From: a virus
Virus record (IMG/VR): IMGVR_UViG_3300033150_001583
Location: 75,585-139,584 of that record
Reading direction: 5' to 3' (one strand)
DNA: 64,000 bases
Part shown: positions 1,203 through 1,595 of the stretch, in pieces
Layout: every line of letters begins with the position of its first letter
How positions within the stretch are numbered: the first letter of the stretch is position 1
Translations under genes and position numbers: made by a program
The notes under the pieces: model-generated
The model's input: only the letters and a program-made list of their open reading frames with translations
Told to the model about the DNA's origin: nothing
Databases searched by the model: none

Positions 1203-1595
1203 ATTTAGTGCTTTACATTTTGGGCATAAAAATACCCCCAATCCATTGATTTTGTTGAACCAATAAATTGGAGGATTTAGTGGTTTGGGGTACATATATT
1301 TATTGCTATGAAAAGATATTTATACCCTTTTTGCTGTGGAATTCATTTGGAATACAACCGCTGAAACCCTTGTGGCAGTAAGGCTCAGCTTACTTTAGCT
1401 TCAATCCTTAGTTTGTCCGCTATCATGGCGATAAATTCCGAATCGTGGTTTTGCCGCTGGCGTTTTTTAAAACCTGAAACCTTAGAGCGTCAAGGCTTAG
1501 AGAGTTTTCAGAAAATTTTAACTTACCACTAAATCTCCGAAATTTATTGGTTTCAACCCCAAGAAATAGTAGCTTTTTTGCTTTAACCATTATAT
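1203..1595. repeat. Putative integrase arm-type sites ACCA(C/A)TAAAT on both sides of the core
   Basis: Copies at 1259-1268, 1275-1284 (rc), 1525-1534 and 1542-1551 (rc); 1256-1284 and 1525-1555 form a ~30-bp inverted repeat. Confidence 0.7.
1385..1443 (-). other. spo0A: attP core: duplicated 3' end of spo0A (SEFIAMIADKLRIEAKVS-stop)
   Basis: Minus-strand translation matches the conserved Spo0A C-terminus (B. subtilis ...NSEFIAMVADKLRLEHKAS). Similarity ends abruptly at ~1443, and the fragment lies ~230 bp from the int start. Confidence 0.9.

Follow-up and report, generated by a model that had tools for sequence, protein, structure and literature searches.

Near the start of the window (the whole stretch of DNA analyzed here, which is the final 64 kb of an IMG/VR virus record) lie a gene for an Xer-like tyrosine integrase and, upstream of it on the same strand, a short piece of the 3' end of spo0A (Table 1). 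The piece is 57 nt long and encodes SEFIAMIADKLRIEAKVS* in 18 codons followed by TGA, with stop codons upstream of it in its own frame. The original prediction had placed this peptide on the minus strand from 1443 to 1385; the peptide and its end at 1385 hold, but the start is at 1441, and 1443 is 2 nt too far. It had also taken the peptide to be the conserved C terminus of Spo0A, and this is borne out. A degenerate pattern for EFIAMIADKLRIE, applied to one genome per prokaryote species, recovered 56 loci, nearly all of which are the 3' ends of full-length spo0A genes. The 17 residues EFIAMIADKLRIEAKVS, together with the stop, are the exact Spo0A C terminus in at least nine loci (L013, L023, L010, L049, L024, L039, L052, L019, and L022), which come from Peptococcaceae bacterium SCADC1_2_3, three UBA "Desulfotomaculum/Firmicutes" metagenome-assembled genomes (MAGs), two Desulforudis, and three other Bacillota MAGs.

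Table 1. Features in and around the spo0A fragment, in window coordinates
Feature	Coordinates	Strand	Description
Xer-like tyrosine integrase gene (int)	180..1151	minus	323 aa; SAM-like core-binding and catalytic domains
Hairpin and T-run, terminator- or attenuator-like	1225..1274	minus	between spo0A end and int, read from spo0A to int
P' arm, convergent half-site pair	1258..1285		AACCAATAAAT-TGGAGG-ATTTAGTGGTT
Imperfect palindromic unit directly after spo0A stop	1361..1387		AAGGGTT on minus strand, 1371 to 1365; local hairpin in RNA fold
spo0A 3' fragment	1385..1441	minus	attP core region; gene-restoring segment
Decayed, frameshifted spo0A continuation	1442..1455	minus	GKPTN codons; local alignment to L013 and L024 with 1-nt gap
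Second palindromic unit, P arm	1474..1500		CTGAAACC-N10-AAGGCT; inverted AAGCCTT at -60 from GAA codon
P arm, convergent half-site pair	1524..1552		ACCACTAAAT-CTCCGAA-ATTTATTGGTT; inverted copy of P' pair
Near-consensus sigma-A/sigma-70 promoter	1589..1618	minus	TTGACT, 18-nt spacer, TG, TATAAT; 11/12; faces int across attP core

At the nucleotide level the coding part is closest to the SCADC1_2_3 group (48 of 54 positions identical), in which the loci have a GC content of about 40%. Seven differences separate it from the nearest spo0A genes over 19 codons, and all seven are synonymous. Homology to these genes runs 14 nt further upstream, to about position 1455 (GGCAAA...), with the frame broken by a 1-nt gap, and the BLAST match to genome G002 begins at query position 56. 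Given that gap, we regard this 5' part as a decayed, frameshifted continuation of spo0A. The synonymous-only differences and the broken upstream frame together indicate that the part that would be expressed after integration has been kept intact and that the part that would not be has decayed. The carried tail also tracks the host lineage, reading IEAKVS in the window, IEHKVS in Paenibacillus elements, and LEHKAS in Bacillus-type contigs. Segment 1355-1500 also has a higher GC content than the genome (46% versus 33.7%), in line with an attachment site that contains host-like DNA. In elements that restore a gene's 3' end, attP adjoins int and includes the terminal portion of the target gene, in frame through the stop codon, and the window has this arrangement.

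The BLASTn comparison proposed in the original prediction does return spo0A genes, the closest among 401 genomes of the phylum at 86% over 69 nt and the best matches at 86 to 89%, but with one genome per species searched it found neither a lysogen of the phage itself nor an identical attB, attL, or attR. An exact 33-mer of the fragment had no match in viral contigs and none in metagenome contigs.

A single attachment-type site in a tailed phage

The record is a phage genome of 139,584 bp with a GC content of 33.7%; its two termini are joined by a 114-bp overlap, and we therefore treat it as a circular assembly. Genes for the large terminase, portal, tail proteins, a DnaE-type polymerase, a primase, and an anaerobic ribonucleotide reductase could be read in it, and the phage is also CRISPR-bearing. 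The terminase, portal, and tail genes identify a genuine tailed phage, and the reductase gene makes an anaerobic host probable. By direct motif and BLAST search the spo0A fragment is present once in the whole genome (a Pfam Spo0A_C search gave no match, the 18-residue piece being too short for the model), which points to an attP-type single site and not to an island integrated within the phage. The expectation that phage DNA lies on both sides of the fragment, and that the window shows the excised attP form, agrees with the circular genome, its virion genes, and this single copy.

The gene beside the fragment encodes a tyrosine integrase, as had been stated: PF00589 matches residues 138 to 305 with an E value of 1.3e-37, PF02899 matches from residue 9, and the catalytic signature R..HxxR..H/W..Y is present in the translation as TGMR, HQLR, GHSS, and QAY. 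The nearest solved structures are XerA and XerD. The NCBIfam models for XerC, XerA, and XerD match as well, yet below their equivalog cutoffs (TIGR02224 at 171.9 bits versus 335 and TIGR02225 at 167.6 versus 329.6), so the enzyme is not a chromosomal XerC or XerD. The core-binding domain begins at residue 9 and thus leaves no room for a separate N-terminal arm-binding domain of the lambda type, and as a tyrosine recombinase the enzyme is not a large serine recombinase of the kind used by skin and SPbeta. No close integrase was found among INPHARED phages.

Two features of the surrounding genome are recorded here in their own right. A second tyrosine recombinase gene (G000:C1:2603-3382, minus strand) lies outside the window near the terminase gene; its product is 23% identical to the attP-linked integrase, and dimer resolution or recombination at another site are possible roles for it. 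The genes past attP, all on the minus strand, encode a NADAR-domain protein (2255-2707), a protein with PolyA_pol_RNAbd and HD Pfam domains (5628-6662), and a RuvB homologue (7267-8202). Among the genes neighboring int, no repressor or excisionase was recognizable.

Relatives of the integrase at the 3' end of spo0A

Where enough flanking sequence is available, relatives of the integrase (54 to 66% identity) all lie about 200 bp past the spo0A stop on the same strand. In Paenibacillales, 18 of 401 sampled genomes hold an integrase of this family (54 to 66% identity), and in all 18 it directly follows spo0A; the family is thus present in 4.5% of sampled Paenibacillales species, and it also occurs in one anaerobic Bacillota class. 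In two IMG/VR relatives (L057 and L060, 55 to 59% identity), a piece of the spo0A 3' end precedes int by about 200 bp in the same orientation, and two more relatives start at a contig edge. Metagenome contigs encoding an integrase of at least 54% identity, with enough upstream DNA, share this layout throughout: ten contain a full-length spo0A ORF (246 to 289 codons upstream) and three are cut by the contig end, while L092/L093 and L103 hold only a 31- to 32-codon spo0A piece with stops before it, which is the attP form. Counted together, three contigs besides that of the window show this excised form (layouts L060/L103 and L092/L093). More distant integrases on metagenome contigs, at 35% identity or less, had no spo0A neighbor. 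Related prophages at a different locus, named beforehand as contrary evidence, did not turn up: no relative among those examined sat elsewhere.

The target gene is left whole. In 27 of 28 attL-type loci that are uncut by a contig end, a full-length spo0A ORF (246 to 290 codons upstream of EFIAM) precedes int, so the gene is not split in the manner of the skin and SPbeta targets. The lysogens that the original prediction called for, in which full spo0A and int are followed at the other end of the prophage by a second 3' copy, were found for relatives of the integrase. All five Paenibacillales genomes tested (G883, G616, G899, G585, and G763) carry the spo0A 3' end a second time past int, as a directly oriented copy 67 to 164 nt long and 13.8 to 23.3 kb downstream. 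In G080, a genome of the class of SCADC1_2_3, spo0A is followed by a 63%-identical integrase gene and by a second copy 19 kb downstream, which brings to six the lysogens with such a copy 14 to 23 kb away. The direct repeat in G080 is 122 bp long and 97% identical, with three mismatches at its 5' end, one at its 3' end, and a 77-bp identical stretch between them; mismatches confined to the ends are the pattern expected of a crossover in between. The pairing of an intact target gene at attL with a duplicate 3' end at attR was seen in these six relatives only. Integration into spo0A with restoration of the gene is therefore supported at the level of the family, by the linkage of int and by the attL/attR repeats of the relatives.

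Several of these loci merit separate mention. The G080 island also has a primase-polymerase gene. In the same genome (L086, G080:C52:76783-80205), spo0A is frameshifted once, near residue 222, and int next to it is broken into three ORF pieces; the cause is either decay of the element in a lineage that does not sporulate or a MAG with indel errors. At L142 (G555:C28:4471-8433), directly before int, the spo0A match is in overlapping pieces, residues 34 to 277 and then 241 to 307 in another frame; the junction duplicates about 37 codons, and spo0A may be broken in that genome. Saccharibacillus sp. JS10 has an attL-type junction with a 60%-identical integrase, in a 10.5-kb insertion after spo0A relative to S. 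sacchari. Exact-word, BLAST, and peptide searches did not detect a second spo0A copy in JS10, and this insertion is probably an old or truncated island.

The same site is also used by integrases that are only distantly related to that of the window. In G456 (G456:C1:1864283-1904068; L139 and L140), a 39.7-kb element lies between perfect 62-bp direct repeats that comprise the end of spo0A (NSEFIAMVADKLRIEHKVS*) and 3 nt more; two tandem integrase genes follow spo0A, and a third, in reverse orientation, is situated at the opposite end of the element. As these enzymes are only about 30% identical to that of the window, they represent a second recombinase family at this site. The segment L057:4639-6972 contains, in order, a reversed integrase gene (30% identity), an orphan spo0A tail, and an integrase gene of 59% identity. 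We considered L057 as an attP form and rejected this, because the sequence that precedes the tail matches the distal end of a G456-type element; the junction of two different elements in tandem at spo0A is more likely. The G456 element and the L057 tandem show that integrases of more than one family converge on the spo0A end, which is thus a hot spot for integration. Orphan spo0A 3' tails after stops were also noted in Alicyclobacillus herbarius (L042, scaffold 10) and Paenibacillus polysaccharolyticus (L005). The full spo0A of A. herbarius is on another scaffold (L017, scaffold 3), where it adjoins a gene for a 29%-identical integrase, and these tails are probably further elements at the spo0A site. 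In INPHARED, only unannotated human-feces "Bacteriophage sp." contigs (MT836771, MT835781, MT835504, and six others) have stretches similar to the Spo0A C terminus (47 to 58% identity over about 38 residues); they may be more spo0A-targeting elements or may carry phage homologues of spo0A.

Motifs, hairpin, and promoter in the two arms

For 18 relatives we aligned the DNA that separates the end of spo0A from the start of int, and we compared the elements in attP form. The degenerate motif CCRMYWAAY occurs 22 times on both strands of the 64 kb, and four of these occurrences lie within 300 nt around the fragment. The ACCA(C/A)TAAAT repeats that had been reported to flank the fragment are present, and they resolve into two convergent pairs, one on each side (1260+/1275- and 1526+/1542-). 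Each pair consists of inverted half-sites of about 11 nt separated by a spacer of 6 to 7 nt, and the TTTATTGG core of the P' pair is nearly invariant, and in the same place, in the 18 relatives. The two sides of the spo0A core, GCGATAAAT and CGGACAAAC on opposite strands, each match the arm motif at eight of nine positions, a resemblance that suggests that one recombinase recognizes all of these sites. We conjecture that the same recombinase probably binds the CCAATAAAT-type half-sites of both arms as additional sites. An 11-6-11 Xer-type crossover site in the spo0A codons, AATTTATCGCC-ATGATA-GCGGACAAACT, was also considered; its half-sites match at eight of nine positions, but their orientation to the spacer is opposite to that in the arm pairs, and we did not adopt it.

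The direct repeat CTGAAACC...AAGGCT noted in the original prediction is found at 1361-1385 and 1474-1497, and each unit is also an imperfect palindrome. The heptamers of the window (1365-1371 and 1492-1498) fall inside these units. The heptamer AAGGG(A/T)T is found at +66 or +67 from the GAA codon in the window, L060, L092, and the attL of G080, which is 12 to 13 nt past the spo0A stop whatever the length of the carried spo0A piece. Its inverted counterpart lies 59 to 71 nt upstream of the GAA codon (-60 in the window, -59 in L060, and -71 in L092).

A hairpin followed by a T-run separates the spo0A end from int. Its consensus fold across 20 family members has 14 pairs, eight of them with compensatory changes, and 90% of the cells are paired versus 40 to 62% with slid partners; none of 500 shuffles reached the observed values. 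The hairpin also appears in the RNA fold of 1215-1392 (z score of -3.56). G-U pairs are tolerated on the strand that runs from spo0A to int, and this indicates a structure formed in RNA that is transcribed in this direction. The int start codon of most relatives comes just a few bases past the T-run, and the purines for ribosome binding are located in the 3' half of the stem. On the far side of the core, the predicted promoter has equivalents (10 to 11 of 12 positions) situated 170 to 230 nt upstream of the fragment in L060, L092, and the attR of G080, and no promoters were found on the opposite strand in those three elements.

Proposed integration at spo0A, alternatives, and known systems

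We conclude, with a probability of roughly 0.87, that positions 1152 to 1620 are the attP of a temperate 140-kb tailed phage whose Xer-like integrase recombines attP with the 3' end of the host spo0A and keeps the gene intact. We are highly confident that this attP works now or did so until recently. In the sequence of events that we envisage, the phage would circularize, and the promoter in the far arm, together with the long minus-strand operon above it, would transcribe int across attP. The integrase would then recombine attP with the spo0A 3' end somewhere within the codons SEFIAM(I/V)ADKL...KVS, and the last 18 codons of the host gene would be swapped for the phage copy. Because the phage codons specify the same residues, Spo0A would be unchanged and the cell would still be able to sporulate. 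In the resulting lysogen, int would lie about 230 bp behind spo0A and the displaced host 3' end would stay at the far prophage junction. The far-arm promoter is predicted to drive int only in the circular form, since integration would cut it off from int, and the hairpin and T-run would end or damp spo0A read-through into int in the lysogen. That this particular phage integrates is a projection from its relatives and from the layout of the window. Its host would be an anaerobic spore-former with a Spo0A ending in ...IADKLRIEAKVS, most like the Peptococcaceae group of SCADC1_2_3 and UBA2203, with a GC content of about 40%.

An extension of this scheme, which we offer as speculation and think unlikely, would tie int expression to the sporulation decision. 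In the lysogen, spo0A would be the only transcription unit upstream of int, and read-through from its sporulation-induced promoter past the hairpin, whose stem holds the int ribosome-binding site, would set the integrase level; the element could then excise, or re-integrate into the chromosome of the forespore, as Spo0A becomes active. If true, this would be a prophage switch that senses transcription of the sporulation master regulator itself.

The alternative that fares best, although we consider it improbable, is that the module is a fossil, with an int-attP cassette gained by recombination from a small spo0A-targeting island, which the phage has stopped using or has never used, and a phage that is only lytic or episomal. 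Most family members are found on islands of 10 to 23 kb and not on large phages, so the module could be a recent acquisition by the phage. The phage has its own polymerase, primase, and second tyrosine recombinase, and no lysogen emerged either from the 33-mer search of viral and metagenome contigs or from a terminase search for related prophages in 162 genomes of the candidate host class, which found none (the terminase has just one relative in IMG/VR, a distant one at 42% identity). The stretch from the hairpin to the int start is also about 75 nt longer in the window than in the relatives, and the first 14 residues of the integrase differ. Against this, the int ORF is intact with its catalytic signature, the 18 codons have stayed in frame with synonymous differences only while the unneeded upstream part decayed, and both arms retain the family motifs, the promoter, and the hairpin.

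Two further alternatives seem to us very improbable. The fragment might act by itself, as a Spo0A-tail peptide or a spo0A-3'-end RNA that interferes with sporulation control, with no integration site involved; the strong predicted promoter would transcribe it in the sense direction, and phages of spore-formers do carry sporulation regulators, but the frame of the fragment offers no start codon from the upstream stop to SEF, the listed ORFs include none of this kind, the sense orientation precludes antisense pairing, and the attL/attR pairs of the relatives fully explain the layout. As for an assembly chimera, with host DNA wrongly joined to phage sequence, the record does come from metagenome assembly and segment 1355-1500 has a GC content of 46% versus 33.7% genome-wide, but the host-like part is just about 70 nt long and its limit coincides with the spo0A stop, independent contigs and genomes show the same architecture, and the flanks bear family-specific motifs.

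With the integrative attP as the preferred reading, the mechanism is classical, of the icd or tRNA type, and the target is new to the literature searched. The original prediction had called a spo0A target unusual, and that literature yielded no account of spo0A as a site of phage attachment. Judged from the genomes and contigs compared, the integrase family appears to be widespread and to have the spo0A end as its only landing site. In Bacillota cells, spo0A decides sporulation, biofilm, and toxin or solvent formation. In each such lysogen the C terminus of Spo0A and the 3' untranslated region would be supplied by the phage, a layout that makes a possible link between the onset of sporulation and prophage behavior directly testable. 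The spo0A end would be a new conserved attB for spore-formers and potentially a predictable integration site for genetic tools, and such elements would explain orphan spo0A tails in genome annotations. For the 140-kb CRISPR-bearing phage itself, the finding marks it as probably temperate and narrows its host to spore-forming anaerobes.

A close precedent is element e14 and phage 21 at the icd gene of Escherichia coli, reportedly described by Hill, Gray, and Brody in 1989. There too a tyrosine integrase acts at the 3' end of a protein gene, a substitute end is carried in, which keeps the gene functional, and the displaced host end is found at the other junction. In those cases the target is a metabolic gene, whereas here it is spo0A and the enzyme is short, two-domain, and Xer-like; moreover, the spo0A family spans Paenibacillales and an anaerobic Bacillota class, with carriers that range from islands of about 10 kb to a 140-kb phage. 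Integrases that target the 3' ends of tRNA or tmRNA genes, such as those of P4, P22, and SaPI-like islands, are alike in having, beside int, an attP that repeats the 3' portion of a highly conserved gene; the integrated elements lie between direct repeats and form tandem arrays at a hot spot (compare L057 and G456). They differ in that the target here is a protein-coding regulatory gene, the repeats are 57 to 164 nt long, and the reading frame must be kept.

The predicted promoter recalls Pcirc of ICEclc, which reaches the integrase gene only across the joined ends of the circular form. In both cases an outward promoter at one end faces int at the other only once the element is circular, although here this arrangement is deduced from consensus matches conserved in four elements. 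XerA, XerC/D, and XerH with their dif sites are the closest solved or curated relatives of the enzyme and share its two domains and the lack of an arm-binding domain; the paired inverted half-sites of the arms are a further likeness. Unlike them, the enzyme of the window, which falls far short of the Xer equivalog cutoff (172 versus 335 bits), travels with mobile elements and integrates at the end of a gene, not at a dimer-resolution site.

Elements that intervene in sporulation genes include skin in sigK, SPbeta in spsM, and yin in yabG (PMC5025042 and PMC10747680). Like the elements studied here, they are prophage-like and occupy genes for sporulation in endospore formers. The original prediction contrasted the spo0A target with skin and SPbeta; recombinase class and target do differ, but the contrast needs amending in one respect, as spo0A here is restored and not interrupted. 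Whereas skin, SPbeta, and yin split their gene and excise in the mother cell to rebuild it, spo0A would be made whole upon integration. Finally, skin and SPbeta use serine recombinases, in contrast to the tyrosine recombinase found here, and the known targets act after the onset of sporulation, whereas spo0A is the stage-0 master regulator.
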